IMG/VR virus record: IMGVR_UViG_3300027708_000022
Location: 1-64,000 of that record
Length of the DNA: 64,000 nt
Source: a virus
Strand: one strand, 5' to 3'
Part shown: piece after piece, positions 2,056 through 7,300 of the stretch
How positions within the stretch are numbered: position 1 is the stretch's first letter
Layout of the letters: each line of letters opens with the position of its first letter
Notes under the pieces: generated by a model
Seen by the model: only the letters and a program-made list of their open reading frames with translations
Database searches by the model: none
Told to the model about the DNA's origin: nothing
Translations under genes and position numbers: made by a program

Positions 2056-2485
2056 CAAACTCACCTTTTTTCTGATATTCTATTCTATAAGTTCTGTTAC
2101 GTAATTCACTACTGCTAAAGTGATGATCTCTCCGATTAAAATAGATTTCAATACCTCTACCAGCACAGATATCTTTTGCAGTGAATTGTTTTTCTTTATA
2201 TTCATCACCAATAATTCTAACTGAAATTGGGAATGAACGGAATATTTCCTCTAAGTCACTTTCATATGTGTATGGTATAATCTGATCAACATATGTAACT
2301 GCCTTGAGTTGAATATATCTTTCAACTACACTTTGGATAGGTTTATTTTTTTCTTTCCGATCAATTGTTGGATCAGTTTGTAATCCAACAATTAAAAAGT
2401 CACATTGAGTCTTTGCTTCTTCTAACATCAATATGTGACCAGCATGAAGTAAATCAAATGCACTACATGTAAATCCAACTCTCAT
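2033..2485 (-). CDS. Cytidylyltransferase (glycerol-3-phosphate cytidylyltransferase/TagD-like)
   Basis: FDLLHAGH (HxGH) motif, VGLQTD, C-terminal R...SSSELR; SD AGGAG. Confidence 0.85.
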   Translation of the reverse strand: MRVGFTCSAFDLLHAGHILMLEEAKTQCDFLIVGLQTDPTIDRKEKNKPIQSVVERYIQLKAVTYVDQIIPYTYESDLEEIFRSFPISVRIIGDEYKEKQFTAKDICAGRGIEIYFNRRDHHFSSSELRNRTYRIEYQKKGEFDEVSPNK

Positions 2486-2495
2486 AATAATCTCC

Positions 2496-3053
2496 TTAAA
2501 TTTCTGGTAGTTCTTTCACATCCAATTCAATAAAGTTTTCAATACCTTTAATCTTTACTTTCTTTTTATTCTTTTTAGTTTCTTCAAATGTATGAATGAA
2601 TTCTGATATGTTATCATACATTTTAAATTGTTGCATATGCCCATTCTCATCTTCAAACATTTCACCTTCATCTAATAAACCAAACTGTTCTGTTGCTTTG
2701 TATTTTACATATAGTTGTTTCTTCTCTTTGGCAATTCTTCGTAGAAATGCAAAGTAAATAATCTGTGTAAAATAGGCAAATGGATTAGATGATTTGGCAG
2801 GATCAAAGTTTCTGAAATACATTATACAATTTTCAATACCATCTGCAATCATTTCATCTCTAAATGAATATGATACGAAGTTTGGTTTTCTAGATAGATG
2901 TTCTGCAATTTTAATAAAACATTCACCGATATAGTTTGGTACTATAGGTTCTGGTTTATCATTTTTTTTGGCTTCAACACACTTTTCGGTATAATCGGTT
3001 AGTGCTTTTAAGAAGTCGGCATTGTTAATGTAATGTGCTTTTTTCTTACTCAT
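2496..3053 (-). CDS. gp55: Late-transcription sigma factor
   Basis: HYINNADFL...YIGECFIKIAEHLS.KPNFVSYSFRDEMIADGIENC..YF.NFDP.KS.NPFAYFTQI; T4 synteny with gp47/46. Confidence 0.95.
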   Translation of the reverse strand: MSKKKAHYINNADFLKALTDYTEKCVEAKKNDKPEPIVPNYIGECFIKIAEHLSRKPNFVSYSFRDEMIADGIENCIMYFRNFDPAKSSNPFAYFTQIIYFAFLRRIAKEKKQLYVKYKATEQFGLLDEGEMFEDENGHMQQFKMYDNISEFIHTFEETKKNKKKVKIKGIENFIELDVKELPEI

Positions 3054-3074
3054 AATATTTACCTTATATTTCGC

Positions 3075-3103
3075 TTGACAGGTTAGTGATACATTGTTAT
3101 AAT
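3075..3103 (+). promoter_or_regulatory. Consensus sigma70-type (early) promoter, oriented antisense to the local operon
   Basis: TTGACA (3075-3080), 17-nt spacer ending TGT, TATAAT (3098-3103). Confidence 0.8.
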
Positions 3104-3117
3104 GGTTTTGTCGTTCT

Positions 3118-3549
3118 TTAATGTAATATTCTTTTCTTATTACTTAATACTTCTTTAATGGTTTCAATACTATCTACATACTCTGAGAACTCTTCTTCTG
3201 AAACATCTTCTTCATCACCATCTTCGTTTAATGATTGTTCAATGTGGTCTGACTCTTCAATGATACATTCATTCAAATCAATCACTGCCTTATTATAATA
3301 ATTAACAAGAGATTCTTTAGGTTGAAATACAGTTAATACGTCTTGTGAATAAACTGTAGCCATATTATATTGAATAATCTCTACAGGTAACCAAGGTACC
3401 ATCATCATAACTGATTTACCAGTAATCTGTCTTTTAAATAATACTGTCATAGGATTGTTAAGTGTAACGATACCTTCTTCTTTATCTTCTATCATAGAAG
3501 CAATGATATCTTCACCCGATTGCATCCTTATTATTTTTATGTTATCCAT
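3118..3549 (-). CDS. Conserved T4-like hypothetical protein with acidic C-terminus
   Basis: IKIIRMQSGEDIIA N-terminus typical of the gene lying between uvsW and gp55 in environmental T4-like phages. Confidence 0.7.
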   Translation of the reverse strand: MDNIKIIRMQSGEDIIASMIEDKEEGIVTLNNPMTVLFKRQITGKSVMMMVPWLPVEIIQYNMATVYSQDVLTVFQPKESLVNYYNKAVIDLNECIIEESDHIEQSLNEDGDEEDVSEEEFSEYVDSIETIKEVLSNKKRILH

Positions 3550-3579
3550 GTCAAAAATACCCTTTTAGGTAAAAAAAAT

Positions 3580-3587
3580 TATAAATA
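3580..3587 (+). promoter_or_regulatory. T4-type late promoter for the GIY-YIG gene
   Basis: Exact TATAAATA about 60 nt upstream of ATG 3646. Confidence 0.75.
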
Positions 3588-3645
3588 AGTGTAGATCGCC
3601 GAGTTGCAGCTCGCACCTACTCTAATACGAAAGGACCGTATCAGT

Positions 3646-4146
3646 ATGACTATTTATTCTTCTAAAAACAGACCTAATCATTTTTATGTATATGCTTATC
3701 TAAGAGATAATAATTTACCTTATTATATAGGTAAAGGTTGCAGAGATAGAGCATGGAACAAAAATCATTCAATAAACATACCTAATGATAACACAAAAAT
3801 AATAATAATGCAAGCTAATTTAACGGAAATTGGAGCATTTGCCATAGAAAGAAGAATGATTCAATGGTATGGAAGAATTGATAATGGTACAGGTATACTT
3901 AGAAATTTAACTGATGGTGGTGATGGAACATCCGGTTATAAACAATCAGAAATACACATACAAAAACGAAAAAAAGCTAGACTTTTAAGTGGATATAATC
4001 ATACACCAGAATCTAAAAATAAATTATCAATTAATAAAACAGGTAAACTTAGACCAGATCATAGTCAAAAAATGAAACAGTATTGGGATAAAAAAACAAA
4101 AGAAGAAAAATTACAACATTCCAAAAAAACTTTTAATAAAAATTAA
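3646..4146 (+). mobile_element. Free-standing GIY-YIG-type homing endonuclease with NUMOD3-like DNA-binding motifs
   Basis: FYVYAYLR...YYIGKG...R, E..MIQWYGR, LRNLTDGGDG, HTPESKNKLS; opposite strand to neighbours; start set at ATG 3646 (MTIYS) rather than TTG 3604; stop overlaps the uvsW-C stop (TTAA 4143-4146). Confidence 0.85.
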
Positions 4147-4838
4147 ATTTTTAATTCTATATTATAAAACTTATAATTAAATTTTTCATCGTCATACATC
4201 TTTACTCTGCCAACGAAGTGTGTCAAGGTATAATTAACATGTTTGCCTATTCTAAAATCATCAGAGATATCATAAAGAACCGCTTCTTCTTTATTATCAC
4301 CTAATCTAAGTCCACGACCAATTGATTGTAGATTACGAATTTTTGATTTAGATGGTGATGCAAATATTACATTATGTAAATTACGTATATTAATACCAGT
4401 TGAGAATGTACCGTATGAAGCAACAATAATGGCATCTGTTTCACGTTCAGTTATATCTCTAATAGATTCTCTAACTTCGGTATCAGTACCACCATATACA
4501 AAAAATACTTTACGTTTACCTGCTTCTTCTTTTATAATATTATGTAGAACTTTACCATGTTTATCTACAAATTGAAATAGTATTAATGAATTACCTTTCA
4601 ACGACAAGGCAAGATTCTTTATAAATGCATTTCTTGCTGTGTTCAATACTATATATTCAATCTCTTCTTTGTAGTCCCACTTCTTAGATAACTTACAAAC
4701 TTCTTCTGGATATTTAAGTATTAAACATTTAATCTTAAATTTAGATAACTGTTTGTTATCCATTAATTCTTTTGTTGTTGTTGCTTTATATACTGGTCCA
4801 AATAAACCTTCTAATACTAATCTATGAACATTACTCAT
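4143..4838 (-). CDS. uvsW: UvsW helicase, C-terminal half (RecA2 domain)
   Basis: HRLVLEGLFGPV, VASYGTFSTGINI (motif V), LQSIGRGLR (motif VI). Confidence 0.93.
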   Translation of the reverse strand: MSNVHRLVLEGLFGPVYKATTTKELMDNKQLSKFKIKCLILKYPEEVCKLSKKWDYKEEIEYIVLNTARNAFIKNLALSLKGNSLILFQFVDKHGKVLHNIIKEEAGKRKVFFVYGGTDTEVRESIRDITERETDAIIVASYGTFSTGINIRNLHNVIFASPSKSKIRNLQSIGRGLRLGDNKEEAVLYDISDDFRIGKHVNYTLTHFVGRVKMYDDEKFNYKFYNIELKI

Positions 4839-5493
4839 TTTTTTCCATAATATTTTTTAACATTTGTTGTCGTCTTTTTTCTATCAATAATAAAGATTTT
4901 TCTTTACCTAAAAGTTCTTCGTATGTTTTGCCTCTTGACCAATCACCAATTTTTTTCTTAGATTCTTCTGTGTGTGGATATCTGCCACTATATGTTAATT
5001 GTTCAAAGGATATTTTTCCATCAATAAAAGAATACAACCTTCTTTTTGTTGTTTGTAATTTTTCCCAAGCTTCTTTTCTACTTTTATACTTTATTCCATT
5101 TATTTCTATTTCTTTAGCATTTGGATTATTTTCTGACATTCTTTTCATTTCTTTATCAGAAAGAGTTTTACCTTTATGGTGTAAACTTGCTGATAAAGAG
5201 TGTGCTTTTCTAGCTATTTCATAACCAATTGAAGTGTAGTACCTATTAGTAGAATCATGGTATCTCATCATGCCAAAAGCATGACCCATTTTAATTTTAT
5301 CTTTTCCTTTTGAGAATTTCCATAATAACCAATGACACACAAAGTGTTCTCTTGCTGTCAATTTTACTTTATTTTTTTTACCATTGTCACCACCTAAAGA
5401 TTTAGGTATTATATGGTGCTCCTCAAAATACTCGGACATTGTCCGAGTATTAGCTTTTTCTATTATAGAGTAATATATTTTTTGATAGTCCAT
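4831..5493 (-). mobile_element. HNH homing endonuclease inserted in and splitting uvsW
   Basis: EEHHIIPKSLGG.N...N.V.LTAREHFVCHWLL HNH motif; NUMOD-like HTEESKKKIG; lies between the two uvsW halves. Confidence 0.9.
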
Positions 5494-5498
5494 ATTTC

Positions 5499-5506
5499 TA
5501 TTTATG
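5499..5506 (-). promoter_or_regulatory. Late promoter variant (CATAAATA) for the HNH gene
   Basis: CATAAATA 5 nt before ATG 5493; the same variant precedes gp2 and gp8. Confidence 0.6.
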
Positions 5507-5528
5507 CGTTTTAGTTCCTTCTAATAGG

Positions 5529-6302
5529 TTAATTAGCTAATGTTCCGGTGCAACCTATTCTATATTTTGCATTAACCAATTGTGTCATAATTGTTGCTAG
5601 TGATTTGGCTTTGAATTGATGTGCCTCATCACCTATAACAAAATCAAATTGTTCAAAATATTCTGGTGGTTGTTTGTATATACTCTGCCAAGTCGATATT
5701 GATAGGAATTTATCTGAGTGTTTATCTCGACCAGCATATATTATATGACAGTTTGTTTTTGAGTCATAACCATAAGATTCAAAATCTGTGAACATCTGAT
5801 TACAAAGTGAAGTGGTTGGGACAATAAGTAACCCTTTTTTATAACCAGCATCTTGTATTCGTCTAAGTATCAAATAAATGATTAAAGATTTACCTGATGC
5901 AGTAGGTGAAAGAAGTAGAATTCTTTTATTACGGATTGCATGAACAAAAGAACTAACTTGATAATCACGAGGTTCAAATGGCAAACCAAGTGTCTGTATA
6001 AAGTCGTTGGCTTCTTTTAAGGAGTAATTGTCCGTGACTGTTATCTCAGAATCAATCTCAATTTTGTAATCTCTTTCTTTACAAAACTTTTCAATATAAG
6101 GTACCAAGCCATGGTATATTTCCATGGTTCTTAAATCAAGCAACCTTATCTTACCATCCCAATATCTTGCCTTAAATGCAGGAGTATATTGGTAGCCAGG
6201 AACATAGAAACAAAAATAATCGGAAAGTTCTTGTGCTACATTTCTTTCTGATACTACTCTGATAAAGGCTTCGTTAACCTTTTCTAATCTTAAATCATAC
6301 AC
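5529..6302 (-). CDS. uvsW: UvsW helicase, N-terminal half (RecA1 domain)
   Basis: WDGKIRL, PRDYQ, SPTASGKS (Walker A), DEAH (Walker B), ends GCTGTLAN (motif III). Confidence 0.93.
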   Translation of the reverse strand: MYDLRLEKVNEAFIRVVSERNVAQELSDYFCFYVPGYQYTPAFKARYWDGKIRLLDLRTMEIYHGLVPYIEKFCKERDYKIEIDSEITVTDNYSLKEANDFIQTLGLPFEPRDYQVSSFVHAIRNKRILLLSPTASGKSLIIYLILRRIQDAGYKKGLLIVPTTSLCNQMFTDFESYGYDSKTNCHIIYAGRDKHSDKFLSISTWQSIYKQPPEYFEQFDFVIGDEAHQFKAKSLATIMTQLVNAKYRIGCTGTLAN

Positions 6303-6729
6303 CCTGTATAAACCTTTCCCATGTTATAAATTCTTTCAATTGAAATGTTCGTGAATGCAATTCTTTAAGAATACTTTGGCATACATCAACAATTTCTTCA
6401 TGTAAAATTTTGTTAGCCAAGTATTTGTTTAAATCTTCATCACTCTCAAAGTATGTAGTGATCTCGGATTTGAGTACAAAAGGAAATGGTTCCCAACCAT
6501 AGTGTTTAAGTTGGTCATCATCTAATTTACCTGTATAGTATTCCCACTTCAGTCGTTTCATTTTGTTATACTTAAACTCAGACTCTCTCACCAATAGTCG
6601 GTGACGAGAAAGTATATTCAAATACTTACTATGTAGTTGTGGTATGTTTGTTAGTTCTTTGCCTGGCTCAGTTCTATCAATAACAGAATCTTTTGCCCAC
6701 ATAGCTAATAGTTCATCAAGTTTGTTCAT
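6295..6729 (-). CDS. uvsY: Recombination mediator protein
   Basis: W.KDS.ID...IPQLHSKYL...KWEYYTGK...RTFQLKEFITWERF; upstream of uvsW. Confidence 0.9.
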   Translation of the reverse strand: MNKLDELLAMWAKDSVIDRTEPGKELTNIPQLHSKYLNILSRHRLLVRESEFKYNKMKRLKWEYYTGKLDDDQLKHYGWEPFPFVLKSEITTYFESDEDLNKYLANKILHEEIVDVCQSILKELHSRTFQLKEFITWERFIQGV

Positions 6730-6760
6730 TATAAATCCTCCTGTTAGGAGTATACACTAA

Positions 6761-7300
6761 TTATGTAGCTCTGTCAACATCAAAATAGGAATATCTGAAT
6801 GTGGCATCGGCAGTAATGATGGAATCTGGTGTGTCTGAGGCAGAAACCACAAATGTAGATACCGATGTTGGAAACATATCGTAGAAAGTGAATGTGTGTA
6901 ATGGATTGTTTGCTGATGATAAAAGTGTAATCTTAGCATCAGAAAATTGTGGCATTAAATCACCACGAGCATTTGCATTTGAATTCAATAAACTAAGTTT
7001 TTTATATTCGTCAAAACTGGTTACTTTAGTCATAGCACGAATCCAATCGTGAATTTCTAACCAAGACTTTAACTCTTCATCTACCAAAAAGGTAATATTC
7101 AAAATATCATATATGGCCTTTTCACCGGGTGAATATAAATCAACCAATGGTGTATTACGAACAATTTCACCTAATGAAATGCCAGGAATAGTTATAGACT
7201 GACAAAAATATTGTAGATTAGGTACACGACTAAAGTTTAACTGAAACTTATTAGGGTGTAAGTAATTTGGATTGGATGGATTTCTTGTGAATGCACTCAT
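6761..7300 (-). CDS. gp3: Tail tube terminator / tail completion protein
   Basis: NYLHPNKF...YFCQSITIPGISLG...FLVDEEL.SWLEIHDWI...DMFPTS; start moved to ATG 7300, downstream of late promoter. Confidence 0.85.
   Translation of the reverse strand: MSAFTRNPSNPNYLHPNKFQLNFSRVPNLQYFCQSITIPGISLGEIVRNTPLVDLYSPGEKAIYDILNITFLVDEELKSWLEIHDWIRAMTKVTSFDEYKKLSLLNSNANARGDLMPQFSDAKITLLSSANNPLHTFTFYDMFPTSVSTFVVSASDTPDSIITADATFRYSYFDVDRAT

Follow-up and report, generated by a model that had tools for sequence, protein, structure and literature searches.

A MobE-family HNH endonuclease gene inside uvsW very probably divides the helicase gene of an uncultured T4-like phage into two functional-looking cistrons

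The DNA described here (the window) comprises 64,000 nucleotides (nt), positions 1 to 64,000 of IMG/VR virus record IMGVR_UViG_3300027708_000022, which is 162 kb long, approximately 95% complete, and derived from an uncultured T4-like phage. Within it, the gene for the helicase UvsW occurs as two open reading frames (ORFs), the N-half and the C-half, and an ORF for a putative free-standing HNH homing endonuclease lies between them. The features of this locus are listed below in the direction of transcription.

6295..6729, minus strand: uvsY (Pfam UvsY, 3.7e-29), directly upstream and overlapping the start of uvsW.
5529..6302, minus strand: uvsW N-half, 257 amino acids (aa) plus TAA, from the ORF list and Pfam.
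5521..5536, minus strand: 16-nt insert CTAATTAACCTATTAG in native codons, source of the final two codons and TAA stop of the N-half.
5501..5520, minus strand: silent native remnant (E)G-T-K-T-H-K, untranslated, between the N-half stop and the HNH start.
5499..5506, minus strand: box CATAAATA, formed by CAT AAA of the remnant plus TA, 5 nt 5′ of the HNH ATG.
4831..5493, minus strand: MobE-family HNH homing endonuclease gene, 220 aa, in a frame different from that of uvsW.
4831..4838, minus strand: overlap of HNH stop and C-half start, ATGAGTAA, with an A7 run upstream; presumed termination-reinitiation site.
4821..4838, minus strand: start and replacement codons M-S-N-V-H-R, in place of native G-T-K/Q-T-H-K/R.
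4143..4838, minus strand: uvsW C-half, 231 aa, start MSNVHRLVLEGLFG, Pfam Helicase_C.

The N-half contains the UvsW N-terminal domain and the first RecA-like domain (RecA1), including Walker A (SPTASGKS), DEAH (GDEAH), and motif III (TGT). It matched Pfam UvsW_N (1.6e-16), DEAD, and ResIII, and aligned with T4 UvsW (PDB 1rif/2oca at E 5e-41, with 2e-40 given for 2oca). An earlier reading made from the letters of this DNA (the sequence-only reading) had placed the end of the N-half right after motif III, and it was seen there, where GCTGTLAN is followed by TAA at 5529. The C-half, which aligned with T4 UvsW at E 6e-42, contains the last element of RecA1 (residues 2-21) followed by the second RecA-like domain (RecA2) and motifs IV-VI, with FSTGINI as motif V and QSIGRGLR as motif VI. 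The two ORFs together carry the sequence marks of the T4-type UvsW family, namely the UvsW_N domain, two RecA-like domains with helicase motifs, and the position of a T4-like core gene; the family is defined in addition by DNA-dependent ATPase activity with branch migration and R-loop unwinding. The gene order gp23-gp3-uvsY-uvsW-gp55 is the same in P-HM2 and in all related loci. When aligned with the intact UvsW proteins of P-HM2 and marine virus AG-345-F15, the halves were collinear, with 0 residues missing or duplicated and exactly 696 nt of additional DNA between them, so that the earlier description of both halves as intact holds for their motifs and for their ends. No second uvsW was found in the 162-kb record besides a diverged allele at the contig end. 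The nearest cultured relatives are cyanomyophages and Pelagibacter myophages (49-64% protein identity), and a megablast search of positions 3500-6800 against GenBank phages returned no match.

The ORF between the halves matched the PHROGs family phrog_655, annotated as 'homing endonuclease' (1.6e-37), and T4 MobE by tblastn (33% identity over 188 aa, E 9e-17). The encoded protein has an N-terminal HH-P-GG-N-EH-CH motif, readable at residues 24-55 as EEHHIIPKSLGG..N..LTAREH..CH, and a NUMOD3-like C-terminal region. The gene has its own start and stop codons and lies outside any intron or intein. Its ratio of nonsynonymous to synonymous substitution (dN/dS) is 0.10-0.23, which indicates that the nuclease is under selection. 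No useful relative was found in the PDB by sequence search. In locus L093 the HNH gene (4310-4967) has a frameshift after approximately 20 codons, and the gene caller uses an internal GTG start to give 196 aa; this is probably a decaying nuclease gene within an otherwise intact split uvsW.

The anatomy of the cassette was derived by comparing the split allele with intact alleles (e.g. L049 and L057). In intact relatives the site reads TGTL-DGT(K/Q)TH(K/R)-LVLEG. Deleting the 16-nt insert in silico gave TL-EGTKTHK, which is equivalent to native TGTL-DGTKTHK. This piece is found at the same position in every nuclease-bearing variant read across the site, and the two codons it supplies are A, S, H, T, or P followed by N. 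The silent remnant is kept in 8 cassette variants, at a spacing of 5-7 nt from the HNH ORF. Differences in the remnant among the window, L010, L092, L093, L095, and L125 fall solely at third codon positions (GAA/GAT, GGA/GGT/GGG, ACG/ACA/ACT); in L127 and L128 they fall at other codon positions too. The sequence-only reading had reported only 35 non-coding nt flanking the HNH gene. That length is right for the gap between the N-half stop and the HNH start (5494-5528), but the gap is no plain spacer, as it holds part of the 16-nt insert and the native codon remnant. For the sequence TATTAGAAGG after the N-half stop, a reading as a copy of the flanking VLEG codons that co-varies with them was rejected, since L125 breaks the covariation; comparison with intact alleles identifies it instead as native TL(D/E)G codons interrupted by the 16 nt. 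The 16-nt piece, by breaking the retained native codons, could be a self-immunity device against the cassette's own nuclease.

On the other side of the HNH gene, split alleles read MSN(V/I/P)HR-LVLEG, with native LVLEG resuming after the replacement codons. The C-half of L127 reads MSNF-KTHK-LVLEG, so that in this allele the native segment is visible on both sides of the HNH gene. The closest intact relatives of the window have TQTHR where the remnant has TKTHK, so the cassette came from a different uvsW lineage. ORF sequence accounts for 663 of the approximately 716 cassette bases, and about 50 bases in total are non-ORF. Among these, ATAAATA is invariant in 8 of 8 variants, 5-6 nt 5′ of the HNH ATG, with L127 having TATAAATA as its box. 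This may be a T4-type late promoter for HNH and the C-half; enrichment of TATAAATA or CATAAATA in the window was not found, however, so the late-promoter reading is a guess. The conservation of the remnant and of ATAAATA could possibly reflect a promoter or a nuclease half-site.

In 78 of 80 related IMG/VR loci uvsW runs through the insertion site without a break, and the remaining two do not cover it. The same split architecture as in the window was found in at least 11 further loci (L005, L009, L010, L092, L093, L095, L125/126, L127, L128, L133, and the contig-end allele L004). Split loci come from independent JGI, ENA, and Logan assemblies, which excludes an assembly artefact. Among proteins of up to 450 aa, about 30 of the best 120 clusters were N-halves stopping a few residues past TGTL; these mostly end in xN and then a stop, and some are only 54% identical to the window. 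The split is real, widespread, and polymorphic. The proposal that uvsW is split by a free-standing HNH gene was thus borne out by the ORFs, by the Pfam and PHROGs families, and by the contiguity of the site in relatives. A scan of viral contigs for the conserved 5′ cassette motif gave L005 as the sole relevant match, and 26 metagenome matches to this motif were discarded as chance matches because they lack uvsW and HNH.

Presence/absence polymorphism and an element younger than its flanks are the signature of homing, and both were found. Between the window and L009 the HNH genes are 99% identical and the N-halves 87%, and between the window and L010 the values are 96% and 79%. Synonymous divergence (dS) follows the same pattern in every informative pair, with 0.15 for HNH versus 1.32 for the flank between the window and L010, 0.57 versus 2.66 between the window and L095, and 0.36 versus 0.96 and 1.42 for the two flanks between L092 and L125. 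High HNH identity (96-99%, where flanking uvsW is at 75-85%), together with dS far below that of the flanks, suggests that the element homes horizontally. In comparisons with L010 and L004, high identity ends within approximately 15 nt of the C-half ATG on one side and approximately 100 nt into the N-half on the other. Mobility is also suggested by an N-half tree: the split state requires 9 changes on it, and supported branches impose at least 6. This is a FastTree tree only, on a recombining gene, and its split and intact rows come from differently filtered sources, so that frequencies are not readable from it; P0037 and L065, first taken as split, proved to be broken elsewhere and were dropped before the changes were recounted.

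Two loci show longer shared blocks. The window and L009 are 100% identical over more than 3.4 kb (window positions ~2100-5600), starting approximately 70 nt before the N-half stop and covering HNH, the C-half, a GIY-YIG ORF described below, orf143, and gp55; identity upstream is 70-85%. This appears to be a large recombination block with its left edge at the nuclease site. At the contig end of the record, positions 160446-162042 (L004) hold a second allele that is 77% identical to window positions 2824-4930 and spans gp55, orf143, the uvsW C-half, and the 3′ end of HNH, with the HNH part 100% identical. It seems that the assembly wrapped round a circularly permuted genome, continued in a strain occurring alongside, and ended within the HNH gene that the two share.

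The sequence-only reading had noted that the C-half ATG overlaps the 3′ end of the HNH gene and had proposed that the C-half is translationally coupled to it. The overlap is 8 nt in the window. Across 10 distinct variants (8 nuclease-bearing and 2 nuclease-free), the C-half start overlaps the stop of the upstream ORF by 4 or 8 nt, whichever ORF is upstream. The overlap sequences themselves differ between variants (ATGAGTAA, TTGAGTAA, ATGA, ATGTCTAA, ATGAGTGA, and ATGGGTAA), and the constancy of the geometry while the sequence changes supports termination-reinitiation coupling. The start codon is ATG, or TTG in L095, and in most variants only an A-rich stretch lies 5′ of it, without a Shine-Dalgarno sequence. 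Coupling therefore appears a sound proposal, as judged from the variants compared. The further suggestion that coupling helps retain the parasite is plausible, but the nuclease-free lineage described below indicates that HNH can be lost once coupling moves to the N-half. In L005 (176-1525, compared with window positions 4831-4845), a strain 99% identical to the window, an A6 run instead of A7 precedes the C-half ATG and fuses HNH in frame with the C-half into a 449-aa ORF; this may be genuine variation or an error in the homopolymer.

The break had been placed near the junction of RecA1 and RecA2. This is close, but the break lies approximately 20 residues upstream of the border, inside RecA1. 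N-half residue L255 aligns with T4 UvsW residue 262, and C-half residue 10 with T4 residue 273, from which it follows that the 1rif fragment (282 residues) ends at about C-half residue 20. Structure prediction of the heterodimer, one of the checks that the sequence-only reading had proposed, gave an ipSAE of 0.85 for the N-half/C-half complex versus 0.00 for the best of 3 controls, a score that may echo the solved single-chain T4 UvsW, 2oca. The ipSAE mark was calibrated as one reached by 58 of 80 solved complexes and by 2 of 110 mismatched pairs. Runs agreed in at least 78% of contacts, with a partner pLDDT (predicted local distance difference test) of at least 75. The confidently predicted interface pairs C-half residues 2-21 with residues 63-66, 127-133, and 248-255 of the N-half, which in this model would receive its last RecA1 element from the C-half. 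The model represents a plausible geometry and not binding.

Selection on the two halves was compared in split and intact pairs. L092 and L125 belong to one clade of the N-half tree in which every allele is split, and between them dN/dS is 0.155 for the N-half and 0.118 for the C-half. For the nuclease-free pair L094 and L124 the values are 0.145 and 0.144. In intact pairs of similar protein identity the medians are 0.084 and 0.065 and the highest values 0.153 and 0.143, although saturation of dS in the intact pairs blurs this comparison. Selection on both halves thus appears clearly purifying, perhaps somewhat relaxed. Relaxed selection had been named beforehand as a sign that would speak against the two-chain reading, and what was found is purifying selection at 0.12-0.16 on both halves with perhaps slight relaxation relative to intact pairs. 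At least 12 independent alleles retain every catalytic motif and have both reading frames undamaged.

In L094, L124, and a third contig from another run, uvsW occurs as two ORFs with no HNH gene and an 8-nt overlap at the same site. L094 reads GTLPNE* / MSDVHK with the overlap ATGAGTGA, and L124 reads GTLPNNG* / MGNEVN with the overlap ATGGGTAA. The mutual divergence of L094 and L124 rules out sequencing error. In these alleles the halves are out of frame by one extra base and have cassette-type ends (PN..., MSDVH, MGNEV), and the native DG-TKT codons are absent. The junction in L094 (AAT-GAG-TGA) is the expected product of a deletion between two AAT triplets of a nuclease-bearing allele. The cassette-type ends and this deletion-like junction are read as loss of the nuclease that left a permanent split, an interpretation of the lineage that we regard as somewhat more likely than not.

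Several explanations other than a two-chain helicase were considered. RNA-level rejoining had been raised earlier from the TL-ANSNV-H sequence that joining the halves would produce. A self-splicing intron, or another form of removal from the RNA, would yield full-length UvsW and would fit the window insert being an exact multiple of three (696 nt), the restoration of the native TL-x5-H spacing, and the frequent location of phage HNH genes in group I introns (PMC3322345). The equal spacing is, however, explained by the cassette codons (xN and MSNV), which replace native DG and TKT, and an Rfam scan of positions 4000-6500 gave no intron family, even at E up to 10, and two chance matches. The dominance of ORF sequence in the cassette leaves little for an intron, and no consensus RNA fold emerged from 8 variants over the 66 nt between the end of the N-half and the start of HNH (-0.07 kcal/mol). 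The halves are in frame in the window, L009, L092, L095, and L125 but out of frame in L093, L127, and L128, and the single extra base that splits the nuclease-free alleles is too small for an intron. Rejoining at the RNA level thus found no support, and we consider it very unlikely. Translational bypass of the gene 60 type was rejected as well: the gap is 696 nt, no conserved hairpin was found around the N-half stop and remnant in the 8 variants, and matching UUA codons of the 16-nt piece occur only in some variants. A hop over the 16-nt piece would lead to termination 7 codons downstream in the window; in some variants the stop lies a few codons beyond that. A split intein might instead rejoin the two proteins, as happens in 'fractured genes': relatives carry split-intein N-fragments in uvsW at two other sites, and the cultured Salmonella phage CF-SP2 (Gelderlandvirus) annotates uvsW_1, an ORF, and uvsW_2. 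In the window, Pfam detects no Hint or intein domain in either half, and the ends of the halves are exactly collinear with intact UvsW, with no residues left for intein fragments; we give this explanation almost no credence. The relatives in question are P0041, P0057, P0058, P0060, P0067, and P0070 (~322 aa) and P0055 (351 aa), in which N-terminal intein fragments of approximately 100 aa, followed by a stop, come after GDE|C (motif II) or DGTQ|C, the latter at a distance of 3 residues from the HNH site. These uvsW genes are probably 'fractured' by a split intein. The full CF-SP2 annotation is uvsW_1 (327 aa), a 291-aa ORF, uvsW_2, and uvsW_3.

A further possibility is that the split inactivated uvsW and that the halves are decaying remnants, tolerated since the helicase is dispensable. 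uvsW is non-essential in T4, and T4 uvsW mutants are viable, so that a split copy alone is no proof of activity. The split-pair dN/dS values lie at the upper edge of the intact range, which fits some relaxation. In L011 (3501-4799, P0008) an in-frame deletion of approximately 55 aa between EYFN and YKAT removes DEAH, motif III, and the cassette site. The C-part of this uvsW is nearly identical to the L004 allele, and the allele would be either helicase-dead and nuclease-resistant or an assembly collapse. These observations weigh against two functional chains, as does the possible likeness of the predicted complex to 2oca; against the reading of the insert as a homing nuclease weigh the Pfam matches on its motif (HNH_5, HNH_4, and HNH, E 0.01-0.08), which, like that to NUMOD3, are below threshold, and the fact that endonuclease activity and its target are deduced from sequence. 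Decay is nevertheless difficult to reconcile with purifying selection on both halves in wholly split lineages, the nuclease-free pair included, with motifs and frames intact in so many independent alleles, with a stop/start overlap kept despite sequence change, and with a record in which a replacement uvsW copy was not found, and it appears quite improbable. The order of events might also be reversed, with uvsW already divided into two overlapping cistrons, as in L094 and L124, and HNH invading the junction later. All split alleles fall in one clade, near whose base the nuclease-free split alleles branch off, and invasion of an already split gene has been discussed earlier for gene 43 of Aeromonas phage 25 (PMC2988022). 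A silent native DGTKTHK copy between the stop and HNH is, however, expected from entry into an intact gene, unlike entry into a pre-split one, and thus argues that invasion caused the split; the nuclease-free alleles have cassette-type ends in place of native DG-TKT codons, and the AAT-GAG-TGA junction fits deletion from a nuclease-bearing allele. The reversed order is in our view unlikely, if less so than decay. Very probably, a MobE-family HNH gene sits inside uvsW and gives two separate, functional-looking cistrons.

In the mechanism that we propose, the cassette would enter uvsW in the loop after motif III, and native DGT(K/Q)TH(K/R) would be replaced by four parts: the 16-nt piece encoding xN and a stop, the silent native copy, the HNH gene, and the ATG with its replacement codons. 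The N-half would be translated from the uvsY-uvsW message. The C-half, which has no clear ribosome-binding site, would be started by ribosomes terminating on the overlapping upstream stop. In the modelled complex, RecA2 would be tethered non-covalently by the first 20 C-half residues, which lodge in the RecA1 fold of the N-half. The sequence patterns suggest that the cassette spreads among diverged phages by homing into intact uvsW alleles. It can apparently decay, and in one lineage it was seemingly deleted, after which the C-half would be coupled to the N-half stop. We lean slightly toward the view that the cassette is an agent of gene fission that outlasts itself, in that HNH is deleted while uvsW remains two coupled cistrons under purifying selection. 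If true, a single-chain helicase would thereby have a natural, datable path to a permanent two-subunit form.

A second candidate mobile element adjoins the locus. An ORF at 3604-4146 on the plus strand encodes a GIY-YIG/NUMOD3-like free-standing endonuclease (YVYAY...YIGKG) that matches phrog_15526 and phrog_314. It converges on the uvsW C-half and overlaps the C-half stop. The ORF is 100% identical in L009 and 99% identical in L005; the contig-end allele L004 lacks it, as do L092, L093, L095, L125, L127, and L128. By its sequence it appears to be a second mobile nuclease at uvsW, reminiscent of T4 segE.

To our knowledge, genes split by free-standing homing endonucleases have come from only a few laboratory phages (Aeh1 nrdA, T4 39/60, and phage 25 gene 43). 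Split uvsW would add a superfamily 2 (SF2) helicase to these nuclease-split genes, and the wild population shows all stages, namely intact targets, fresh invasions with sharp conversion borders, a frameshifted nuclease, and a nuclease-free split. These stages make it possible to test how an enzyme survives a cut inside a RecA-like domain and whether selfish nucleases drive lasting gene fission. Relatives have split inteins that interrupt uvsW at two further sites, so that three repairs of a fractured gene can be compared in one protein. Split helicases might be engineered at a site like the natural break, which lies after motif III and comes with a docking segment of 20 residues. A literature search found no description of uvsW split by an HNH gene, and uvsW has 0 occurrences in the text of the 2009 paper on fractured genes (PMC2677866).

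Known systems share parts of this arrangement. In T4 39/mobA/60 and phage 25 43A/seg/43B, an endonuclease gene lies between pieces that act as separate subunits (PMC2988022), and as in split uvsW the endonuclease is free-standing and the gene is contiguous in related phages. T4 gene 60 also has a 50-nt translational bypass (PMC2988022); unlike it, the uvsW cassette has no conserved hairpin or matched take-off and landing codons. For phage 25 gene 43, either split or invasion may have come first (PMC2988022), whereas in uvsW the silent remnant points to invasion as the cause. Fractured genes combine a split intein with a free-standing endonuclease (Dassa et al. 2009, PMC2677866). They resemble split uvsW in being phage DNA-metabolism genes in two pieces with an endonuclease ORF between them, but their pieces carry intein fragments and are trans-spliced, while the halves in the window carry none. 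T4 segE is a GIY-YIG endonuclease gene beside uvsW that targets uvsW of RB30 (PMC2988022). Together with the HNH gene described here, it marks uvsW as a recurrent target of free-standing phage endonucleases; unlike that gene, segE adjoins uvsW without splitting it.

The closest likeness is to Aeromonas phage Aeh1, whose arrangement of nrdA-a, mobE, and nrdA-b was reportedly described by Friedrich and colleagues in 2007. In Aeh1 the two NrdA chains encoded on either side of mobE form an active enzyme by non-covalent assembly (Crona et al. 2011, PMC3045599; PMC2988022). The sequence-only reading had named this case as a precedent, and it proved apt, since here too the gene is contiguous in relatives, the halves are collinear, and a MobE-family HNH gene lies between them; by these features split uvsW would belong to the same kind of nuclease-split gene. 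In both cases a MobE-family free-standing HNH gene lies in a conserved DNA-metabolism gene of a T4-like phage with no intron or intein, both cistrons retain catalytic motifs, and short terminal residues are supplied by the insertion. The host gene here is the SF2 helicase gene uvsW, with putative activity, instead of a ribonucleotide reductase gene. The new tails in uvsW are just 2-5 residues long, and the tether is predicted to form through the first 20 residues of the C-half, which complete RecA1. Unlike Aeh1 nrdA, the uvsW cassette retains a silent copy of the native codons that it replaced, and split uvsW is accompanied by many wild alleles that are intact, invaded, decaying, or nuclease-free yet split.

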